From an uncultured Streptococcus sp. (GTDB lineage: Bacteria > Bacillota > Bacilli > Lactobacillales > Streptococcaceae): a stretch of DNA of 64,000 nt. Shown here in pieces: positions 1 through 7,479 of this stretch; the first letter of the stretch is position 1, and each line of letters starts with the position of its first letter. Location: contig NZ_CABFMF010000033.1 of the NCBI RefSeq assembly GCF_901875575.1, positions 35,747 to 99,746 on the forward strand, in the 5' to 3' direction. The translations under genes were made by a program, and so were the position numbers. Under the pieces are notes generated by a model that was given only the letters and a program-made list of their open reading frames with translations, made no database searches and was not told the DNA's origin.

Positions 1-226
1 GAATTGTAGAAAAAAGACGTCAGTGGGGGCTGACGACTAGTTAGAGATGGTGAATTTCAAAATGCGATATGAGCACTATTTCAAAAATTCTCTTTTATTC
101 TAACACTAAATAAAAGAAATGTAAATCTCATTTTGATAATTTTCTTTTTTCTACAAAATATAGAAAAAAGAGGTACATATTATTAGAATATCAAACTTAT
201 TAAATAGAGAATCAATCCAAGTAGGA

Positions 227-1081
227 TTGGATTTTGTTGATGTAGATACATCAAAGGATGTTAAATTATTTTTAGACCCATTGTTGCTATCAGATGGTTT
301 TAGAAATATTGTTAACGATTTTGTAAATACAGTCTATAAAATGTATATTCTGGGTAATAAAGCAGATGCATTACAACTATTTTCACACTCTAAAGAATGT
401 AATGCTATCCACTTTGGATATTCTGAGAGTAACTCCAAAGGGACAGGTGTTTCAATGAAGATGCTTGATCAATTTTTTGGGTATGTCTATAAATCGGTAG
501 ATAAAATCAAAGAAAAATTACTGACACCTATAGCAATGCCGATTTTTGTAAAGAGTTTTTCAGAAGATAGGATGTCTGATTTGTTAGTAAGTTTATTAAA
601 AAAAGAATTGATTTTATATTCTTTAGAACAAGCTCGATTACACGGTTTAAAAATCAGTAATGAAGTACAACGTTTTGATTATTGGGATTCCGAGAGTCAT
701 GAGTGGGCTACCTTTGAAAGCCAGTATGTTCTTGCTCCTAATGAAAATGGTGTAGAGGAACTTCTTATCTTAGTTCCGAAGTTTGTTGTAAGTAAAAGAT
801 TTTTAGTAAATCCTTCTAGATATATTTCAGTAATTTTTCAACACTTGCAGTTGATGGAAAAGTACCAAAGGACTAATGGTACACCAAAATCTAAAAAAGA
901 ATTACGGGAATCAGAGATAGTAGCAAAATATCAAAAGGATAAAGATAAAAGCTATATTTTAGATATGACATTGACATCGCCTGAATACTATGATGTATAC
1001 TATGATAATGCAATTAGGTTTAGTGATAATAAATCTATGACAGATGAAGAGTTAATAGAGTGCCTTACAAAGGATAGATAA
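227..1081 (+). CDS. hypothetical protein, 284 aa, no motif I can assign
   Basis: Uninterrupted ORF in AT-rich DNA immediately upstream of the type I R-M operon. The TTG at 227 has no usable RBS. The frame is open back to 164, and a good RBS (AAGAGG, 168-173) precedes in-frame ATT ATT at 179-184, so the true start is uncertain. Confidence 0.5.
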   Translation: MDFVDVDTSKDVKLFLDPLLLSDGFRNIVNDFVNTVYKMYILGNKADALQLFSHSKECNAIHFGYSESNSKGTGVSMKMLDQFFGYVYKSVDKIKEKLLTPIAMPIFVKSFSEDRMSDLLVSLLKKELILYSLEQARLHGLKISNEVQRFDYWDSESHEWATFESQYVLAPNENGVEELLILVPKFVVSKRFLVNPSRYISVIFQHLQLMEKYQRTNGTPKSKKELRESEIVAKYQKDKDKSYILDMTLTSPEYYDVYYDNAIRFSDNKSMTDEELIECLTKDR

Positions 1082-1108
1082 GGTTAGATTTGGAATAGTG
1101 CTATTAGG

Positions 1109-1137
1109 GAAGAAGTAATTTCTTCTCTTTTTTCTTT
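1109..1137 (+). terminator. weak hairpin plus T-run after the 284-aa ORF
   Basis: agaag-taattt-cttct followed by cttttttctttg. The stem is only 5-7 bp. Confidence 0.3.
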
Positions 1138-1164
1138 GTTATCAGCATTTGTTATTATGATTCA

Positions 1165-1173
1165 TGATATAAT
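1165..1173 (+). promoter_or_regulatory. extended -10 element (TGaTATAAT) likely driving hsdS-KAP-hsdM
   Basis: tgatataat lies about 34 nt upstream of the hsdS start. No clear -35. Confidence 0.45.
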
Positions 1174-1206
1174 ATAAAAAATGAGAAATAAGGTAAGGAG
1201 AAGAGT

Positions 1207-2427
1207 TTGAAAGCTTTACTACCTAAAATAAAATTTAAAAATTTTGATGAGAAATGGAATAGAAAAAAATTACATAGTATTGCGCCCCTGCGTGGAGGCT
1301 TTGCTTTCAAAAGTGAAAAATTTCAAAATACTGGGATTCCAATTGTTAGAATATCAAATATCAAATTTGACGGAACTATTGGAGGGGAGTTTGAATATTA
1401 TTCTAAGATAATTTCAGATGAAAAATTTGTTCTTAGAGGGCGTTCAATTCTATTGGCTATGTCAGGAGCAACTACTGGGAAAATAGCGATGCTAGATTCT
1501 GAGGAAGAATACTATCAAAATCAACGAGTCGGCTATTTCCAAAATACTGGGGAAGTAGACTATGATTTTCTCTCTTCTGTTTTGCAGACGAAAGCATTTA
1601 CTAACCAACTAAATGCTGTATTAGTAGCAGGTGCACAACCAAATATATCTTCCAAAGAAATTGATTCCTTTGAATTTTATATTCCAGACTCAATAGAAGA
1701 ACAATCCGCCATTGGTTATCTTTTATGCACCCTTGACGACCTTCTGTCTAGCTACAAGGATAATCTCACCAACTACCAAGCTCTCAAGGCGACCATGCTC
1801 TCAAAAATGTTTCCCAAGGATGATCAGTCTGTTCCAGAGATTCGTTTGGATGGATTTGAAGATAGATGGGAAGAAAGGTGTATAGGGGAGTTGGCTGATA
1901 TTGTTCGTGGTGCTTCTCCTAGACCAATACAAGATCCAAAATGGTTTGATTCTAATTCAGAAATTGGTTGGTTAAGAATTTCAGATGTGACAAATCAGAA
2001 TGGTAGAATTCATAGTTTAGAGCAAAAAATTTCAAAATTAGGTCAAGAAAAAACAAGAGTTCTAACAGAACCTCATTTATTACTTAGTATTGCTGCAACT
2101 GTTGGTAAACCTGTGGTCAACTATGTTAAAACGGGGGTACATGATGGATTTTTAATTTTTATGAATCCAAAATTTGATAGAGAATTTATGTTTCAATGGT
2201 TAGAGATGTTTAGAGAAAAATGGAATCGATATGGTCAACCAGGAAGTCAAGTAAATCTCAATAGTGATATTGTAAAAAATCAAAAAATACTTATCCCTTC
2301 TATGGAGGAGCAACGTGCCATCGGCACTTACTTCTTAAATCTCGATAACCTCATCAGCTCTAACCAAGAAAAAATTTCTCAGCTAGAAATACTGAAAAAG
2401 AAACTCTTGCAGGATATGTTTATTTAA
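1207..2427 (+). CDS. hsdS: type I restriction-modification specificity subunit HsdS
   Basis: Two target-recognition halves, each followed by the conserved HsdS spacer motif (IPDSIEEQSAIGYLL...SSYKDNL and IPSMEEQRAIGTYFL...LLQDMF). TTG start with an AAGGAG RBS about 8 nt upstream. Confidence 0.9.
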   Translation: MKALLPKIKFKNFDEKWNRKKLHSIAPLRGGFAFKSEKFQNTGIPIVRISNIKFDGTIGGEFEYYSKIISDEKFVLRGRSILLAMSGATTGKIAMLDSEEEYYQNQRVGYFQNTGEVDYDFLSSVLQTKAFTNQLNAVLVAGAQPNISSKEIDSFEFYIPDSIEEQSAIGYLLCTLDDLLSSYKDNLTNYQALKATMLSKMFPKDDQSVPEIRLDGFEDRWEERCIGELADIVRGASPRPIQDPKWFDSNSEIGWLRISDVTNQNGRIHSLEQKISKLGQEKTRVLTEPHLLLSIAATVGKPVVNYVKTGVHDGFLIFMNPKFDREFMFQWLEMFREKWNRYGQPGSQVNLNSDIVKNQKILIPSMEEQRAIGTYFLNLDNLISSNQEKISQLEILKKKLLQDMFI

Positions 2428-2438
2428 GGATTTGAAGT

Positions 2439-4319
2439 ATGAGCGATATTTTTATAGAATTGGAGAAGATTGACACTTCAGAAGCAGCAAAAAATTTTGC
2501 TGAACTACTGCAAGAAGATAAAACATATTTTCTTAATGGAAACTGGGGATCAGGGAAATCAACATTTTTACAGGATGTAAATAAGAATAAAAAGATAAAA
2601 CTAATTACTATGGATTTTTGGAGATTAACAGATAATCGTTCAATGATTGAAGTAACATTTTCAAAACTCCACCCAATTTTTTACTTAGTTTTGATGAGGT
2701 TAAGTCTTGTTGTATTTGTGATAGTTTCTATTTTGATGACGAATGTTGTTGACATAGGATTGGGTGAGTATTTTGGTTCTGAGAAATCAGTGATTTTGAA
2801 AATTGGAGGATTGGTATCTCTAGGAGTTGCAGTTTGGAATGTTTTTAAATATAAATCTGATGAGTTGTATAGCTTCTTATTAACTAGACTACATAAATTT
2901 TCTAAGATTTTAGTTATTGATGATTTTGATAGAATGTTGGAAAAGCAGCAAGAAGACTGTTATAAGCTTTTTAGTTTGATAAATGGAAAGCTACCTATTA
3001 TTTTTGTTGGTGATATGACACTACTTTATAAGAGAGGAGATAACTATCTATCAAAGATAATTGATAGGCAAGTTGAGTTACCTTTTGTACTACATTCTTC
3101 AAATATTTGGGATAGTTATTTTCATTTATTAGAAAAAAAGTTTGGCGTTTATTTATCAGAGAACTTTAAAAAAAGAGTTAAAAGTGACCAGAGAAATTTA
3201 CGTGATAGGGAACATTTTAATGATTATGTAAATAAAGAATTTTTTACAAGAAGGAAATTTGGTCGTGTTCAAGTGGAACAACAGTTATTAATTATCTATG
3301 CTTACTTGTTTTATCCAGAACTCTATAAGAAAATGCTCAACAATATACAAATAGTCATAGAAGAGAATGAGAAAACAAAGCTAGAAGATTTCCTCCGTAA
3401 AGGCCACACAATAAAAGAGCTGTTATCTGAAATCCAAAAAGTTGATAATGAGCAATATCCACTAAGTTTTAATAAGAATAGTATGGAATATTTTCTTTAT
3501 GAAGTGCCTATGAATCGTACAAAAGATGAATTAGATACCTTGTTCGTGGAACAGTCAGATAAATTTATACAAGAGTTATTAAATTCGGATCAAAAGACTG
3601 ATTTTTATCAATATTTGAATAATCAATTTGCAGATTTTTCTGATATTCAGAAAAAAAGTTTACTAAATATTGTTATTAATGAATCTATGAAGTTTAAAAA
3701 TAGTCCCTCTATGACTCTTATTGTCCAAGAAATGTATAATGAGATAGTGCCTCCATATGAAAGAAATTATCCCCTAACAAAAGATGTGATTTCTAAAATT
3801 GTTGAAATGTGGGAAAATATTTTAAAACCTGCAGGATTAGATCAATCTGAGATTATATATTTTTTAGAAAAGCATAGAGTATTGAGCTTCCATGATTTAG
3901 GGTGCCATTTTCATGATTTAGATATTGGTTGTCAAACCTTTACAAAGTATCGTAGAAAAGATTTTCTTCTATTGACTTATTTAGCTTCAGTGGAAAAATT
4001 TAGCAAATTTGATAGTTGGGATAGCAGTATATGGGATTTTATAAATCATTTCAACGATACAGAATTTCTATCATTCTGGACATTTCAGTCTATTCTATCG
4101 AATGAATATGGCTTTGATGGATTTGATATTATTCCTGAAAATAAGAAATATATTCTTTGGACAGGGAGATATATGTTTGCTCCGCCAAATGACTATGTAA
4201 GTTATGAAAAGACAGTAATTTTAAATATTCGGGAAAAACTAAATCAAATGGAGTCAAATGGATTCGTATTTGAAGCCAAAATTGATGAACTAAAGAAACC
4301 ATTATCAATGAAAACTTAG
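2439..4319 (+). CDS. KAP-family P-loop NTPase with two transmembrane helices inserted in the NTPase domain (626 aa)
   Basis: Walker A GNWGSGKST (aa 34-42). Hydrophobic helices at about aa 80-104 and 117-136. Walker B ILVIDDFDR (aa 157-165). This is the diagnostic KAP arrangement. About 460 aa of C-terminal sequence have no motif I recognise. Gaps to hsdS and hsdM are 11 nt each. Confidence 0.75.
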   Translation: MSDIFIELEKIDTSEAAKNFAELLQEDKTYFLNGNWGSGKSTFLQDVNKNKKIKLITMDFWRLTDNRSMIEVTFSKLHPIFYLVLMRLSLVVFVIVSILMTNVVDIGLGEYFGSEKSVILKIGGLVSLGVAVWNVFKYKSDELYSFLLTRLHKFSKILVIDDFDRMLEKQQEDCYKLFSLINGKLPIIFVGDMTLLYKRGDNYLSKIIDRQVELPFVLHSSNIWDSYFHLLEKKFGVYLSENFKKRVKSDQRNLRDREHFNDYVNKEFFTRRKFGRVQVEQQLLIIYAYLFYPELYKKMLNNIQIVIEENEKTKLEDFLRKGHTIKELLSEIQKVDNEQYPLSFNKNSMEYFLYEVPMNRTKDELDTLFVEQSDKFIQELLNSDQKTDFYQYLNNQFADFSDIQKKSLLNIVINESMKFKNSPSMTLIVQEMYNEIVPPYERNYPLTKDVISKIVEMWENILKPAGLDQSEIIYFLEKHRVLSFHDLGCHFHDLDIGCQTFTKYRRKDFLLLTYLASVEKFSKFDSWDSSIWDFINHFNDTEFLSFWTFQSILSNEYGFDGFDIIPENKKYILWTGRYMFAPPNDYVSYEKTVILNIREKLNQMESNGFVFEAKIDELKKPLSMKT

Positions 4320-4330
4320 AAAGAAACATT

Positions 4331-5932
4331 ATGGAAACAACACAAACGTCCCAGTCGCTTTACCAAGCCCTGTGGAACTCAGCGGATGTTCTCCGCTCTA
4401 AGATGGATGCTAATGACTACAAGTCCTATCTTTTGGGTATGGTCTTTTATAAGTACCTGTCAGATAAGATGCTCTTTTTCGTGGCGGAGACTATGGAGGA
4501 GGGGAGTGGGAGTCTAGAGGCTGCCCTTGAGGTCTATCGTAACTACTATGAGGATGCGGACACCCACGAGGATCTTCTTGCAGTGATGAAGAACGAACTC
4601 AACTATAGTATCAAGCCTGAGTTGACCTTTACGGCTCTAGTAGCACGTGTCAATGAGGGGACTTTCCAGTTGGAAGATTTGGCTCAGGGTTTTCGTGATA
4701 TTGAGCAGAGTGATGAACTCTATGAAAACCTCTTTGAAGATATTGACCTCTATTCCAAAAAGCTAGGGGCGACTCCGCAAAAGCAAAACCAAACGGTGGC
4801 GGCAGTCATGAAGGAGTTGGCTGTGCTAGATGTGGCTGGCCATGCTGGTGATATGCTGGGGGATGCTTATGAGTATCTGATCGGTCAGTTTGCGACTGAC
4901 TCGGGTAAGAAGGCTGGTGAGTTCTATACACCTCAGCCTGTTGCCAAACTTATGACTCAGATTGCCTTTTTGGGTCGTGAGGACCAGCTAGGCTTTACCA
5001 TCTATGATGCGACCATGGGGTCTGGCTCTCTCTTGCTCAATGCCAAGAAATACTCTCATAAACCGCAGACAGTGGTCTACTTTGGGCAGGAGCTCAATAC
5101 CTCGACCTATAACTTGGCTCGGATGAACATGATCCTACACGGTGTTCCAGTTGAAAATCAATTTCTCCACAATGCTGATACACTAGATGAAGACTGGCCA
5201 ACCCAGGAACCAACCAACTTTGACGGTGTTCTCATGAACCCTCCCTACTCTGCCAAGTGGTCTGCTAGCTCTGGCTTCCTGAATGACCCTCGTTTCTCTC
5301 CATTTGGGAAACTAGCACCCCAGTCCAAGGCTGACTTTGCCTTTCTCTTGCATGGTTACTACCATCTTAAGCAGGATAATGGAGTCATGGCTATCGTCCT
5401 TCCCCACGGTGTTCTTTTCCGTGGAAATGCGGAAGGGACCATTCGTAAGGCCTTGTTAGAAGAAGGGGCTATTGATACAGTAATCGGTCTACCTGCTAAT
5501 ATCTTCTTTAACACCAGCATTCCGACCACGGTTATCATTCTCAAAAAGAACCGTACCAACCGTGATGTCTACTTTATCGATGCTTCTAAGGAGTTTGATA
5601 AGGGGAAAAACCAGAATATCATGACGGATACTCATATCGAGAAGATTTTGGAAGCCTACAAGTCTCGTGAGGAGATTGACAAGTTTGCCCATCTGGCAAG
5701 TTATGAAGAAATCGTTGAAAATGACTATAACCTCAATATCCCTCGCTATGTAGATACTTTTGAGGAAGAAGAAGTCGAACCACTGACAGATATCGTCAGC
5801 AAGATTAACACGACAAATCAAGCAATCCAAAACCAAACAGCTTCTCTACTTGAAATGCTCGGTCAACTACACGGAACTACACCAGAAGCCGATGCTGAGC
5901 TTAAAGAGTTTTTGAAAGAGTTTGAAGGGTGA
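4331..5932 (+). CDS. hsdM: type I restriction-modification N6-adenine DNA methyltransferase subunit HsdM
   Basis: HsdM N-terminal region, SAM-binding motif DATMGSGSLL, and catalytic NPPY (LMNPPYSAKW). Confidence 0.92.
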   Translation: METTQTSQSLYQALWNSADVLRSKMDANDYKSYLLGMVFYKYLSDKMLFFVAETMEEGSGSLEAALEVYRNYYEDADTHEDLLAVMKNELNYSIKPELTFTALVARVNEGTFQLEDLAQGFRDIEQSDELYENLFEDIDLYSKKLGATPQKQNQTVAAVMKELAVLDVAGHAGDMLGDAYEYLIGQFATDSGKKAGEFYTPQPVAKLMTQIAFLGREDQLGFTIYDATMGSGSLLLNAKKYSHKPQTVVYFGQELNTSTYNLARMNMILHGVPVENQFLHNADTLDEDWPTQEPTNFDGVLMNPPYSAKWSASSGFLNDPRFSPFGKLAPQSKADFAFLLHGYYHLKQDNGVMAIVLPHGVLFRGNAEGTIRKALLEEGAIDTVIGLPANIFFNTSIPTTVIILKKNRTNRDVYFIDASKEFDKGKNQNIMTDTHIEKILEAYKSREEIDKFAHLASYEEIVENDYNLNIPRYVDTFEEEEVEPLTDIVSKINTTNQAIQNQTASLLEMLGQLHGTTPEADAELKEFLKEFEG

Positions 5933-5965
5933 TGGAGAAATAGTTAGATACATCTATCAGATTTG

Positions 5966-6004
5966 AAATACCAGCCAAATTAACTTTTGGTTGGTATTTG
6001 TTTT
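5966..6004 (+). terminator. rho-independent terminator of the hsdS-KAP-hsdM operon
   Basis: aaataccagccaaa / tttggttggtattt 14-bp stem, 6-nt loop, then gtttt. Confidence 0.75.
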
Positions 6005-6011
6005 CTAAAAA

Positions 6012-6046
6012 TGATATAATTAAATTACCTAAAAGGTAATTTAATT
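6012..6046 (+). promoter_or_regulatory. extended -10 promoter overlapped by a perfect 12-5-12 palindrome (probable HigA operator)
   Basis: tgatataat at 6012-6020. aattaaattacc-taaaa-ggtaatttaatt at 6018-6046 has perfect inverted arms. It lies 17 nt upstream of the higB ATG. Confidence 0.7.
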
Positions 6047-6062
6047 TAACAGAAAGGGACAT

Positions 6063-6401
6063 ATGAAGCTTATCTATACAAACAAAACTGTTGAAAAGCA
6101 GTGCACAGAGCTGAGGAGAGCGAAAAAGGATTTTTCGGATAAGGTTGCTGTAAAGTTGCATCTCTTGATTAACTTTTTGGAAGCGGCGGATTCTTTAGCT
6201 AGTGTGACAGCTTTTCCTAAATATCACTTTCATCAACTAAAGGGAAAGAGACAGGGGCAGTTTGCTTTGGATATAGATGGTCGAAGGAGTTCCTATCGGT
6301 TGATTGTAGAATTTCGTGACGAGGATTTAGAAAAAGTGTTTCCAAATCCTGTTGAGATCGAAATCTTAAAAATAGAGGAGGTCAGCAATCACTATGAGTA
6401 A
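6063..6401 (+). CDS. higB: HigB-type (plasmid maintenance killer, RelE/ParE superfamily) toxin
   Basis: 112 aa. C-terminal YHFHQLKGKRQGQFALDIDGRRSSYRLIVEF matches the HigB killer-protein signature. Overlaps the downstream antitoxin gene by 8 nt. Confidence 0.75.
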   Translation: MKLIYTNKTVEKQCTELRRAKKDFSDKVAVKLHLLINFLEAADSLASVTAFPKYHFHQLKGKRQGQFALDIDGRRSSYRLIVEFRDEDLEKVFPNPVEIEILKIEEVSNHYE

Positions 6402-7479
6402 TAAAATTGTTGAATACAAAGACCTGATTGCTTTTCATCCAGGTCAGTATGTCAGTGAGTTAATCGAAGATTATAATGTAACGCAGAAGGAATTTGCGAA
6501 GCGTTTGGGAGTTTCGGCAAAGACTGTCAGCAAGCTCGTCAATGCTGAGGAGTCCATCAGTAAAGAAACGGCTCATAAGTTAGCTAAGCTAAGCGGAGTT
6601 TCCATGCAAACTTGGCTCAATCTTCAGAATGCTTATGATATAAAAGTGGCTGAGATTGCAGAGAAAAGAGAGCTTGAAGAAGGTAGCGAGAAAGAAATCT
6701 GTGAGATGATTGATTTCAAGTATTTTAAGGAAAAAGGCTACGTTCCAGACAAACGCTATAGCTTGAAGGAAAAGATTGTCGAGCTTCGCAAGATTCTAGG
6801 TGTGGCAAGTTTAGAAAATCTTACATCTTTTAATCATCTAGTCAGCTATCGGAATACGCGTAAGTTCACGACTAAAAGTATAGTGAATTCCAATATTATG
6901 TTGGAGTTGGCGTCTAAAAAAGCACGTGATACAACAACTATCAAGCTCAATCGTAGAAAGCTAGAAAGAAGCTTGCCTGCTTTGAGAAAGTTGAGCAGAC
7001 AAGATCCAGAAGAATTTACTCAACGTTTGTCTGATATTTTGTTAGACTGTGGTGTTGTCCTAGTCGGTCTACCTGCCTTACCAAATGCCAATCTGAATGG
7101 AGCGACTAAAAAATTCAATAATGGCAGTGCCTTGCTTTTACTCACGGATAGAAACAAAGCATCTGATATTTTCTGGTTCTCACTCTTTCATGAGATAGGA
7201 CATATTCTGGAAAATGATTTTTCATCTGATGATGGGAATAGCGAATCCTATCTTCGTTCTGAGGAACAGGCAGATCAGTTTGCAAAAGATTTCTTGATTA
7301 GACCAGAAGATTACCAGACTTTTATCAAAAAAGGAAATTTTGATAAGTCGGATATTCTAGATTTTGCAGAGGAAATAGATATTCATCCGAGCGTTGTTTT
7401 AGGCAGATTACAAAATGAGGGTATTCTTGGTTTTGACCGTTTCCGAGAACTAAAAGAAAATTATTACTTTGTTTCCTAA
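6394..7479 (+). CDS. higA: HigA-family HTH antitoxin fused to an ImmA/IrrE-type zinc metallopeptidase domain (361 aa)
   Basis: The N-terminus FHPGQYVSELIEDYNVTQKEFAKRLGVSAKTVSKLVN...WLNLQNAYD is the HigA HTH signature. The C-terminal half carries HEIGH (FHEIGHIL), typical of COG2856 peptidases. Confidence 0.75.
   Translation: MSNKIVEYKDLIAFHPGQYVSELIEDYNVTQKEFAKRLGVSAKTVSKLVNAEESISKETAHKLAKLSGVSMQTWLNLQNAYDIKVAEIAEKRELEEGSEKEICEMIDFKYFKEKGYVPDKRYSLKEKIVELRKILGVASLENLTSFNHLVSYRNTRKFTTKSIVNSNIMLELASKKARDTTTIKLNRRKLERSLPALRKLSRQDPEEFTQRLSDILLDCGVVLVGLPALPNANLNGATKKFNNGSALLLLTDRNKASDIFWFSLFHEIGHILENDFSSDDGNSESYLRSEEQADQFAKDFLIRPEDYQTFIKKGNFDKSDILDFAEEIDIHPSVVLGRLQNEGILGFDRFRELKENYYFVS

Follow-up and report, generated by a model that had tools for sequence, protein, structure and literature searches.

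Transmembrane P-loop NTPases are established as anti-phage genes, with PifA, Tmn and the KAP fusions of 2025-26 as examples, and genes embedded in type I restriction-modification (R-M) operons are known to be a source of defence systems. PifA is an F plasmid protein that excludes T7. PrrC, the classic type I-embedded gene, fires upon inhibition of its R-M partner, and the Rlo genes of C. jejuni are nested in type I R-M loci as independent defences. Payne et al. (bioRxiv 10.1101/2024.01.29.577857) found an enrichment for defence among genes that are embedded in loci of type I R-M, BREX or DISARM systems, and TgvAB in V. cholerae represents an embedded independent defence in a type I R-M locus (PMC11411939). 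In E. faecalis, KAP NTPases fused to unknown C-terminal regions (EF_KAP) protect from phages; Walker B (D246/D247) and the C-terminal region are both required, and the mode of protection was reported not to be abortive infection (PMC13552941). Tmn senses the phage protein RIIB, causes plasmolysis and synergises with PrrC and Gabija; its features include main clades of about 1270 aa, decameric assembly, Mg2+ export, a long ARM/HEAT solenoid C-terminal region and the lack of a conserved operon context (PMC13001434). Tmn is a YobI-family NTPase (PMC13001434), not a KAP NTPase as the initial annotation of the DNA studied here had stated.

The DNA analysed is a stretch of 64,000 nucleotides from an uncultured Streptococcus sp. 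(hereafter the window). Near its start, a gene termed X is nested between hsdS and hsdM of a type I R-M operon, with the following features.

227-1081, forward strand: DUF8370 gene, related to PADLOC candidate PDC-M36A (1.2e-15)
1106-1128, forward strand: terminator-like hairpin, a 10-pair stem followed by TTTTTCTTTG, which closes the upstream DUF8370 cargo gene and precedes TGATATAAT
1165-1173, forward strand: extended -10 element TGATATAAT, read directly from the sequence and probably serving as promoter for hsdS-X-hsdM
1207-2427, forward strand: hsdS, type I specificity subunit of 406 aa with a TTG start and two target-recognition domains (Methylase_S twice; Specificity_I, 1.8e-105)
2428-2438, forward strand: left spacer of 11 nt, which is the left cargo junction; the ribosome-binding site AAGGA overlaps the hsdS stop codon
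2439-4319, forward strand: X, a membrane-anchored KAP-type P-loop NTPase by prediction, 626 aa, the slot cargo (WP_295501496.1, "P-loop NTPase fold protein")
4311-4330, forward strand: conserved right junction AAAACTTAGAAAGAAACATT, containing the X stop codon TAG (4317-4319) and the hsdM leader
4331-5932, forward strand: hsdM, type I methyltransferase of 533 aa (TIGR00497, 365 bits), right homology arm of the slot
5966-5999, forward strand: intrinsic terminator of the operon, with 14 pairs, a 6-nt loop and a GTTTTCT tail
6063-7479, forward strand: HigB-like toxin and HigA-type HTH/M78-peptidase protein, a third variable site directly past the operon terminator

The three open reading frames lie on the same strand and are separated by spacers of 11 nt each, exactly as first described. 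The single extended -10 element and the single strong terminator (14 bp) proposed to enclose them were likewise located. A good -35 hexamer was absent at TGATATAAT, which is why this element was missing from a consensus promoter scan. Promoter-like hexamer pairs within positions 1-6500 numbered 25 against 24.4 expected from shuffled sequence; with no excess over the shuffled level, an internal promoter has no support. The suggestion that X, being poorer in G+C than hsdM, is a later insertion held up: X contains 28.9% G+C (GC3 23%) compared with 34.6% in hsdS, 46.1% in hsdM (GC3 50%) and 39.5% in the whole window, and its foreign composition agrees with the slot junctions described below.

Within X, four regions were delineated.

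2538-2564, forward strand: Walker A motif GNWGSGKST (aa 34-42, with K40); residues without variation among 24 family members: G34, W36, G37, G39 and K40
2667-2846, forward strand: predicted transmembrane hairpin of two helices (aa 77-136), which separates Walker A from Walker B
2907-2933, forward strand: Walker B motif ILVIDDFDR (aa 157-165); residues without variation among 24 family members: D161, D162, F163, D164 and R165
3339-4316, forward strand: C-terminal domain (aa 301-626), modelled as a helical bundle or solenoid with a small alpha/beta cap (pLDDT 85-95), the proposed sensor

Judged by its sequence and predicted structure, X is a KAP-type P-loop NTPase with a predicted membrane hairpin within the NTPase fold. 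It scored 35.4 bits with the Pfam profile KAP_NTPase (PF07693), for which the cut-off is 20; the match spans aa 16-169 and covers positions 4-166 of the 293 in the profile. The same match is also precomputed for its relatives. The hydropathy profile peaks at about aa 76-110 and 117-136, the first hydrophobic segment itself covering about aa 77-103, and the AlphaFold2 model places helices at 79-100 and 116-136, between strands 54-58 and 156-160. In the alignment of the 24 members, which are 27-62% identical to X, a hydrophobic stretch was found at the hairpin position in every sequence, and two segments were resolved in 20. The Pfam match, the hydropathy, the modelled helices and the alignment thus agree with the original assignment of X as a KAP-type NTPase carrying transmembrane helices inside the fold. 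The NTPase module, including a helical lid, extends to about aa 300 in the AlphaFold2 model, so that about 326 C-terminal residues are left without assignment rather than the 460 or so given at first.

The outline of this C-terminal domain is conserved, but it is the most variable and fastest-diverging part of the family, with a mean identity of 25% compared with 45-47% in the NTPase core. A Foldseek search with the domain returned no match below E = 0.1, which makes it a fold orphan; helical-repeat proteins appeared at E values of 0.14-3, which are not significant. No nuclease, protease or other enzyme domain was recognised in X by profile and structure searches. The NTPase module gave Foldseek matches to oligomerising AAA+/STAND ATPases, among them the defence proteins RdrA, Avs3/4 and EfAvs5; since these matches are weak (E of about 1e-4 to 1e-3, TM-score at most 0.55), oligomerisation of X is drawn as an analogy. 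In the 2023 PADLOC database (PADLOC 2.0 candidate models), no model of a known or candidate system matched X apart from PifA (E = 0.0012, in the P-loop/Walker A region). No YobI or Tmn model in Pfam or PADLOC, both of which are assumed to contain one, matched at E <= 0.01. X is embedded in a type I R-M operon as PrrC and RloC are, but differs from them otherwise: no PrrC or RloC model matched, the fold is of the KAP type, a nuclease domain is lacking and the family is not confined to type I loci.

Comparison of orthologous loci, a check advised at the outset, showed that the insert between hsdS and hsdM is present or absent while its boundaries stay constant. The survey covered 75 metagenome loci with hsdM 96-99% identical. 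X occupied the slot in 8 loci, and in 11 the slot was empty. The commonest alternative cargo was a fused PARIS AriAB (16 loci; PDLC02982, 8e-106), followed by the PADLOC candidates PDC-S34 and/or PDC-S61 (15 loci), unknown small genes of 192 or 197 aa or encoding DUF6119 (13 loci), Kiwa KwaA/KwaB (11 loci) and a CBASS cyclase with its effector (one locus), giving at least 10 cassette types besides the empty slots. Cassette boundaries were identical across the variants: the conserved right junction includes the X stop codon, and empty slots finish in nearly the same sequence. Each cassette has its own ribosome-binding site. The 3' end of hsdS, ending in KKKLLQDMFI and the stop codon, was kept in all slot variants and is the left homology arm of the slot, whereas the second recognition domain of hsdS (window 1863-2292) was replaced in loci L026 and L075. 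The gap from the hsdS stop codon to the conserved leader of about 20 nt before hsdM is, as this survey shows, a recombination hotspot. Because the slot beside a near-identical hsdM is either empty or filled with other cassettes within the same boundaries, X is one interchangeable cassette of a defence hotspot, foreign in composition and situated inside the hsdS-hsdM transcription unit. The streptococcal species concerned are naturally competent, and cassettes would be exchanged by homologous recombination, with hsdM and the conserved 3' end of hsdS serving as arms. Expression of the cargo would then ride on a promoter kept active for methylase production.

No hsdR lies inside the 64-kb window, as had been observed at first. 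This absence stands for the window itself but not for the locus: contigs 98% identical to window 1-5941, examined as a check, have an intact hsdR of 996 aa, the end of which is some 1.7 kb ahead of window position 1, in the order hsdR - 71 aa - DUF6261 - DUF8370 - hsdS. The R-M system is therefore complete, and an alternative effector is not needed. The hsdR-to-hsdS interval forms a second variable stretch with DUF8370 as its cargo, and the genes 5' of hsdS vary among loci. At the site after the operon terminator, otherwise near-identical contigs have a Fic gene or nothing. The defence island around X also contains a toxin-antitoxin pair, Fic, RhuM and PDC-S68. The position of X between hsdS and hsdM, along with the lack of hsdR in the window, could suggest an accessory or alternative type I subunit that tethers M2S to the membrane or replaces HsdR. 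Such a role is hardly credible given the intact hsdR just upstream, the occurrence of the same R-M family with an empty slot or unrelated cargo, and the occurrence of X without type I genes.

On the evidence of sequence comparison, the X family is a small Lactobacillales family of candidate function, patchy and partly plasmid-borne; among 1.84 billion representatives, only 183 clusters (50% identity) matched X. It is common in S. thermophilus, S. salivarius, the mitis group and the plasmids of Enterococcus and Lactococcus. Among 79 genome loci carrying a family member, the nested order hsdS-X-(PDC-S61)-hsdM was found in 32, and in nine of these hsdS and X are separated by about 1.25 kb; a further 11 adjoin another type I system, and 36 have no detected type I gene alongside. 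Nested X recurs over several streptococcal species and two chromosomal sites with 40-98% identity, so that the nesting of a KAP NTPase between S and M, for which the initial annotation had known no described case, is real and recurrent. The expected association of X homologues with R-M or defence genes was found in streptococci, where 43 of 58 loci are nested in or adjoin a type I system. Relatives 55-57% identical to X reside in the same chromosomal island but not between hsdS and hsdM. Un-nested relatives in this island occur in S. oralis, S. infantis and S. mitis; in S. oralis, a different type I operon beside them has PDC-S05. In locus L055, X is the sole gene between flanking housekeeping genes. 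More distant relatives (25-37% identity) are located on plasmids or chromosomes and have no type I genes in their vicinity. X relatives, all of low identity to X, occur on 52 Enterococcus, Lactococcus and Lactobacillus plasmids; neither of the two plasmid loci inspected had type I genes near the relative, and plasmid-borne members were found beside small serine recombinases. On Lactobacillus and Bifidobacterium chromosomes, relatives stand among mixed neighbours including integrases, AbiH and AbiEii, and the neighbours of distant relatives are largely housekeeping genes.

X is probably a self-contained single-gene anti-phage cassette that acts without the R-M complex, in one of several cargo slots of a mitis-group Streptococcus type I R-M operon. 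We model it on STAND NTPases, PifA and Tmn as a STAND/Tmn-like sensor working through the membrane. The C-terminal domain would recognise a phage protein, binding would drive NTP-dependent oligomerisation, and the assembled hairpins would disturb the membrane, causing plasmolysis or a leak of ions or nucleotides, and so stop phage replication. The membrane is proposed as the site of action because no other effector is recognisable in X. Nesting would be a matter of genome organisation, and the R-M complex would not be needed for X to act.

The initial annotation had instead proposed a protein kept latent by the R-M complex or an alternative effector of M2S. In its PrrC-like form, X would be an abortive-infection effector guarded by the type I complex and released when a phage anti-restriction factor attacks that complex. 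The tight nesting with 11-nt spacers within the methylase/specificity operon, the recurrence of this nesting across species and sites, and the precedent of PrrC and RloC, PrrC being almost only embedded in type I R-M (Payne et al.), are all consistent with guarding, as is the triggering of PARIS, the most frequent of the other cargoes, by the anti-restriction protein Ocr (PMC9122126). PARIS itself, however, does not need EcoKI (PMC9122126), and the slot beside a near-identical hsdM is empty or filled by systems, such as PARIS, Kiwa and CBASS, that work elsewhere without R-M. The un-nested relatives at 55-57% identity, those at 25-37% and on the inspected plasmids without type I genes, and the 36 loci with no adjoining type I gene, including the lone X in L055, all argue against both versions; the presence of hsdR argues against the alternative effector. 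Furthermore, X has no similarity to PrrC or RloC. Between the window lineage and S. thermophilus, identity is 92% for hsdM (as it is with the S. salivarius orthologue), 80% for hsdR and 62% for X, which looks like cassette replacement rather than co-evolution of an interface. A PrrC-style dependence of X on the R-M complex is thus unlikely. A looser functional tie is slightly easier to entertain, given that 43 of 58 streptococcal loci are nested in or adjoin a type I system, though still doubtful: the slot may preferentially gather second-line defences that are set off once the type I enzyme has been disabled by a phage, in which case, by analogy, the C-terminal domain would sense the inhibited R-M complex itself or an anti-restriction protein of a streptococcal phage. 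If so, X would be a new sensor-effector type functionally tied to restriction.

X could also be half of a multi-gene cassette requiring a neighbouring cargo gene such as PDC-S61 (PD-(D/E)xK-like, 250 aa) or the HAD-like PDC-S34, in which case the X of the window, with neither partner, would be a remnant or depend on DUF8370/DUF6261. PDC-S61 follows X in S. thermophilus and S. salivarius as well as at many loci of the mitis group, PDC-S34 precedes X in four metagenome loci, and the gap in nine of the nested genome loci fits PDC-S34 by size alone; a nuclease partner would also provide the enzymatic effector that is not recognisable in X. Against this, PDC-S61 occurs with Kiwa or PDC-S34 without X, or alone, and therefore behaves as an independent module. 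X stands alone and intact in the window lineage (about 22 contigs), nine genome loci and four metagenome loci, and its plasmid relatives lack PDC-S61. We consider an obligate partner improbable.

About equally improbable is that X is not an immune gene, but a membrane NTPase for DNA uptake, conjugative-DNA exclusion or membrane signalling, or else a selfish gene in an operon that cannot be silenced. The housekeeping neighbours of distant relatives fit such a role, some slot copies are broken (C3-C3-C3 in L153 and L154), and KAP NTPases were first described with proposed roles in membrane signalling complexes, according to citing passages in PMC3387028 and PMC13552941. On the other hand, X occupies a slot that PARIS, Kiwa, CBASS and PADLOC candidates also use, lies in an island with a toxin-antitoxin pair, Fic, RhuM and PDC-S68, is patchy, partly plasmid-borne and adjoined by small serine recombinases, and diverges fast in its C-terminal domain. 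The shared slot, the defence island, the patchy distribution and the fast divergence are typical of defence genes and argue for an immune role.

Two elements are new at this locus. The X family is, by sequence and model, a small Lactobacillales family of putative defence genes whose C-terminal 326 residues have no structural relative, and the gap between hsdS and hsdM in this streptococcal R-M family is a slot with precise boundaries and often exchanged content. The slot is a practical place to seek new defence genes in oral and dairy streptococci and is relevant to how S. thermophilus starter cultures resist phages.

Among tested proteins EF_KAP is the nearest by class; it resembles X in its KAP-type P-loop domain, its transmembrane helices, its C-terminal region of about 320 aa without known domain or structural relative, and its occurrence as a single gene on mobile DNA of Lactobacillales. 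X relatives on E. faecalis plasmids adjoin a small serine recombinase, the marker used in the EF_KAP study (PMC13552941). Compared by description only, EF_KAP has Walker B residues D246/D247 and one N-terminal helix, whereas in X these residues are D161/D162 and the two helices both lie between the Walker motifs. Unlike X, EF_KAP was not reported inside an R-M operon, and it may be another subfamily with a different action. Tmn shares with X a pair of transmembrane helices inserted in the P-loop domain, a helical and variable C-terminal region as a putative sensor of phage proteins, and a single-gene organisation with no separate enzymatic effector, but it belongs to the YobI rather than the KAP family and is, in its main clades, about 1270 aa long compared with 626 aa for X, whose C-terminal helical domain comprises 326 aa. 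PifA, the sole PADLOC match of X, belongs to the KAP family and the same defence class, although it lacks transmembrane helices (PMC13001434) and the similarity is limited to the P-loop. PrrC and RloC resemble X as co-transcribed NTPase genes inserted among type I R-M genes; they combine an ABC-type ATPase with a nuclease domain, whereas X is a KAP NTPase without one, and PrrC is almost exclusively R-M-embedded and regulated by the R-M complex, in contrast to the X family. With respect to genes identified through "guilt by embedding" (Payne et al.), the slot cargo matches their candidate models PDC-S34 and PDC-S61 and X matches none; here the embedded position is a slot between hsdS and hsdM with exact conserved junctions. 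The slot also resembles the P2/P4 defence hotspots of phages and satellites (PMC9122126), which are likewise short, lie between two conserved genes and show a high turnover of defence cassettes including PARIS; those hotspots are flanked by prophage genes, whereas the hsdS-hsdM slot is flanked by subunits of a chromosomal defence system.

Three genes on the same strand, separated by spacers of 11 nt on either side of X (the 626-aa KAP-type P-loop NTPase gene), form the core of the locus, at exactly the coordinates proposed in the initial annotation.

Features of the operon and its flanks (window coordinates)
227-1081: DUF8370 gene, partial match to the PADLOC multi-gene candidate defence model PDC-M36A (1.2e-15)
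1106-1128: terminator-like hairpin upstream of hsdS
1165-1173: likely promoter element TGATATAAT (extended -10), between the upstream hairpin and hsdS
1207-2427, + strand: hsdS, 406 aa, TTG start; Methylase_S matched twice, full-length type I specificity models at 1.8e-105
2439-4319, + strand: X, 626 aa, Pfam KAP_NTPase
4331-5932, + strand: hsdM, 533 aa, TIGR00497 at 365 bits
5966-5999: terminator of 14 pairs downstream of hsdM
6063-7479: HigB-like toxin (112 aa) and a 361-aa HigA-type HTH/M78-peptidase protein, the latter matching PADLOC PD-Lambda-2_B (3.7e-28)

Promoter-like hexamer pairs were as frequent as in shuffled sequence (25 found, 24.4 expected), with no enrichment of internal promoters. 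Since the hairpin and TGATATAAT also lie upstream and the terminator downstream, a single hsdS-X-hsdM transcript is the simplest reading. A full count gave G+C contents of 28.9% for X (GC3 23%), 34.6% for hsdS, 46.1% for hsdM (GC3 50%) and 39.5% for the whole window, which upholds the earlier estimate that X is lower in G+C than hsdM. The exact X protein was present on 22 metagenome contigs, the longer of which had the order hsdR (996 aa) - 71 aa - DUF6261 - DUF8370 - hsdS - X - hsdM, followed by Fic or nothing and then by DUF1722 - Pyr_excise - metE. Three of these contigs were 98% identical to window positions 1-5941, which places the end of the upstream hsdR ~1.7 kb before window position 1. 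The R-M system around X is thus complete on these contigs, and the idea that X substitutes for a missing HsdR was dropped.

A metagenome scan with the window HsdM identified 80 loci whose hsdM was 96-99% identical, of which 75 showed an upstream hsdS. The gap between the hsdS stop codon and the hsdM leader, hereafter the slot, varied in content among these 75 loci. It was empty in 11, typically with a spacer of 53-65 nt, and held X in eight, either alone (four loci) or behind the PADLOC candidate PDC-S34 (four loci, three of them with a second candidate, PDC-S61, following). Other cargo occupied the rest: fused PARIS AriAB (AAA_21 + DUF4435; PDLC02982 at 8e-106) in 16, PDC-S34 and/or PDC-S61 in 15 (one with a Gp49-type pair), Kiwa KwaA-KwaB in 11 (five with PDC-S61), a CBASS cyclase with a NUDIX/2TM-type effector in one, and other genes in 13. 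The boundaries of the cargo were identical in every variant (comparison loci L098-L177). Cargo began 0-30 nt past the hsdS stop, mostly within 16 nt, behind the conserved coding end ...KKKLLQDMFI*, usually carried its own GGAG-type ribosome-binding site, and ended at a conserved (A)CTTAGAAAGAAACATT leader ahead of the hsdM ATG. The X stop codon of the window (TAG, 4317-4319) falls within this leader (4311-4330), and the last ~20 nt of empty alleles are almost the same. Junctions of this kind likely mark the exchange of cassettes through homologous recombination between the conserved flanks, a route that we infer because these species are naturally transformable. Judged from this comparison, X is best described as one of several exchangeable cassettes at a defence hotspot that lies within a type I R-M operon.

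PDC-S61 adjoined hsdM in many loci and was stacked with X, Kiwa or PDC-S34, and therefore runs of two or three cassettes can occupy the slot. Fragmented cargo, with PARIS (L098 and L123) or X (L153 and L154) split over several ORFs, suggests decay of cassettes in addition to their replacement. The 13 loci with other genes comprised a 192-aa gene in eight (e.g. L134:7375-7950) and a 197-aa gene in four (e.g. L161:7373-7963), both without any match, and a DUF6119 protein in one (L142:6376-7965). All three are candidate new defence genes, and the precisely bounded hotspot together with its unmatched cargo is the most useful by-product of the analysis.

Variation was also found elsewhere in the island. 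The site between hsdR and hsdS, which carries DUF6261 and DUF8370/PDC-M36A-like genes in the window lineage, was highly variable among loci; in syntenic contigs the stretch consisted of a 71-aa ORF, the DUF6261 gene and then the DUF8370 gene. Just past the hsdM terminator, the HigB-like toxin gene overlaps the start of the HigA-type HTH/M78 gene by 8 nt. A Fic-domain gene or nothing took the place of this pair in otherwise 98%-identical contigs, making this a third variable site. Furthermore, the second target-recognition domain of hsdS (window 1863-2292) was replaced in L026 and L075, which were otherwise 95% identical, so specificity domains are shuffled in the same operon that exchanges cargo.

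A 62%-identical homologue of X was found at another chromosomal site in S. thermophilus and S. salivarius, in the order hsdR - variable genes - hsdS - X - 250-aa gene - hsdM; the X gene goes unmentioned in the S. thermophilus defensome papers PMC11514479 and PMC12322248. The 250-aa gene (L011:11904-12656, L015:11891-12643), absent from the window, is PDC-S61 (8e-120) and has a PD-(D/E)xK-like region. An obligate two-gene system of X and PDC-S61 was rejected as the main reading, given that PDC-S61 is freely combined with other cargo and X is also found by itself.

The genome survey covered 79 loci with a member of the X family. X lay between hsdS and hsdM, with or without PDC-S61, in 32 (nine with an extra ~1.25-kb gap between hsdS and X), directly 5' of another type I operon (X - hsdM - RhuM/PDC-S05 - hsdS - hsdR) in seven, and beside a truncated hsdM plus the PADLOC candidate PDC-S68 in four. 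Fifteen mitis-group loci carried X in the same island (PTS - ROK - VTT ... DUF1722 - Pyr_excise - metE), where type I genes did not adjoin it; among them was L055, in which X was the sole gene between flanking housekeeping genes. In the remaining 21, all distant relatives, no hsd gene was detected up to 10 kb away, and eight of these loci were truncated by a contig end on one side. Nesting of X between hsdS and hsdM is thus recurrent, not obligatory. In S. oralis, S. infantis and S. mitis, a relative 55-57% identical to X usually followed a ~885-aa ResIII/DEAD helicase (L030:7098-9755; equivalents in L033-L059) that lacks the HsdR nuclease domain and has weak PbeA-like matches. Obligate pairing with this helicase, considered for S. 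oralis, was rejected on account of L044 and L055, which do not carry it. The distant relatives belonged to Lactobacillus, Bifidobacterium, Enterococcus, Weissella, Alkalibacterium and S. sanguinis, and their neighbours were housekeeping genes with scattered integrases, AbiH, AbiEii, a C5 methylase and PADLOC candidates. A tblastn search identified relatives on 52 plasmids (Enterococcus 32, Lactococcus 18, Lactobacillus 2), among them an E. faecalis conjugative plasmid on which the relative follows a small serine recombinase. Two tandem paralogues from the X family, of 768 and 775 aa, occurred on plasmids of Lactobacillus melliventris and L. helsingborgensis (L091 and L092, 9956-14666).

These distributions bear on the earlier proposal that X is an R-M-guarded effector or an alternative partner of the HsdM2-HsdS methylase complex (M2S). 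Its nesting is real, but functional coupling is unlikely. Dependence on the R-M complex in the manner of PrrC would sit poorly with near-identical operons whose slot is empty or filled with unrelated cargo, with the 36 of 79 family loci where no type I gene adjoins X, and with the absence of similarity between X and PrrC or RloC. X was also only 62% identical between the S. thermophilus/S. salivarius and window lineages, whose hsdM is 92% identical (hsdR 80%, hsdS 33%). One point in favour of such dependence is that PARIS, the commonest cargo, is triggered by an anti-restriction protein; for this reason the slot may favour second-line defences, and X itself might sense anti-restriction factors.

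Assignment of X to the KAP family proved correct (Pfam KAP_NTPase, 35.4 bits; cut-off 20), and NCBI names it 'P-loop NTPase fold protein' (WP_295501496.1); PADLOC and NCBIfam searches gave no informative match. Among 1.84 billion representatives at 50% identity, the family comprised 183 clusters at E <= 1e-3, ~40 of them full-length. Nearly all members in the genome scan came from Lactobacillales, the exceptions being a small number of Bifidobacterium genomes and a single Oscillospiraceae contig. No relative was found among 50,697 phage genome records, and there is therefore no sign of a prophage origin. In an alignment of 24 members, 27-62% identical to X, the Walker motifs (GNWGSGKST with K40; ILVIDDFDR) were invariant, as were R255, K273, Y287, P341, Y351, E355, D388 and W527 in the lid and C-terminal part. 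The hydrophobic segments of X (aa ~77-103 and 117-136) had a counterpart at the hairpin position in all 24, with two segments resolved in 20. Mean pairwise identity was 45-47% in the NTPase core, 25% over aa 301-560 and 22% in the terminal cap.

An AlphaFold2 model from this alignment was confident (pLDDT 86, pTM 0.75). It predicted a P-loop core of five strands (29-33, 54-58, 156-160, 187-191, 210-213), with a helical hairpin (79-100 and 116-136) inserted between the strands that bear Walker A and Walker B. C-terminal to the core come a helical lid (~241-300), residues 315-549, folded entirely as helices, and a small alpha/beta cap at 570-616. A Foldseek search of the full model in the PDB matched the ATPase module alone, and weakly (E 1e-4 to 1e-3, TM-score <=0.55), to oligomerising AAA+/STAND ATPases such as MuB, RFC, ORC and the Dark apoptosome, with the defence proteins RdrA, Avs3/4 and EfAvs5 among the matches. 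A separate model of aa 301-626 (pLDDT 84.7) gave nothing below E = 0.1 in PDB or viral structures; its best, non-significant resemblances were helical-repeat proteins of Puf, HEAT and TPR types. The family profile against the sequences of all PDB chains matched the P-loop and nothing else. An unassigned C-terminal region therefore exists as first described, although the model reduces it from ~460 to ~326 residues, which constitute a fold orphan. No nuclease, protease or other enzyme domain was detected in X by profile and structure searches.

The exact slot common to X and validated systems, the occurrence of relatives outside any hsdS-hsdM pair, both on plasmids and in related species, and the fast divergence of the C-terminal domain together point to X as a stand-alone anti-phage gene. 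In the proposed mechanism, the C-terminal domain would sense a phage protein, sensing would drive NTP-dependent oligomerisation, and the membrane hairpins would then perturb the membrane. We infer every one of these steps, the direct support being the architecture and the absence of another effector domain.

Recent work backs the putative class of X, transmembrane P-loop NTPase defence genes. Tmn, an NTPase of the YobI family that combines a P-loop domain containing two helices with a solenoid C-terminus, induces plasmolysis and senses phage RIIB (PMC13001434), and PifA, according to the same paper, leads to membrane depolarisation and leakage. At the sequence level, however, X falls outside Tmn. 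X relatives on E. faecalis plasmids adjoin a small serine recombinase, which prompts comparison with EF_KAP, an E. faecalis KAP-NTPase fusion with tested anti-phage activity (PMC13552941). Its published Walker B, D246/D247, fits neither X nor the E. faecalis plasmid relative, and because of this position EF_KAP probably represents a different KAP subfamily. Enrichment in defence functions has been reported for genes that lie inside type I R-M, BREX and DISARM loci (bioRxiv 10.1101/2024.01.29.577857; TgvAB in PMC11411939), and X, as embedded cargo with a candidate function, would be a new member of the transmembrane P-loop NTPase defence genes.
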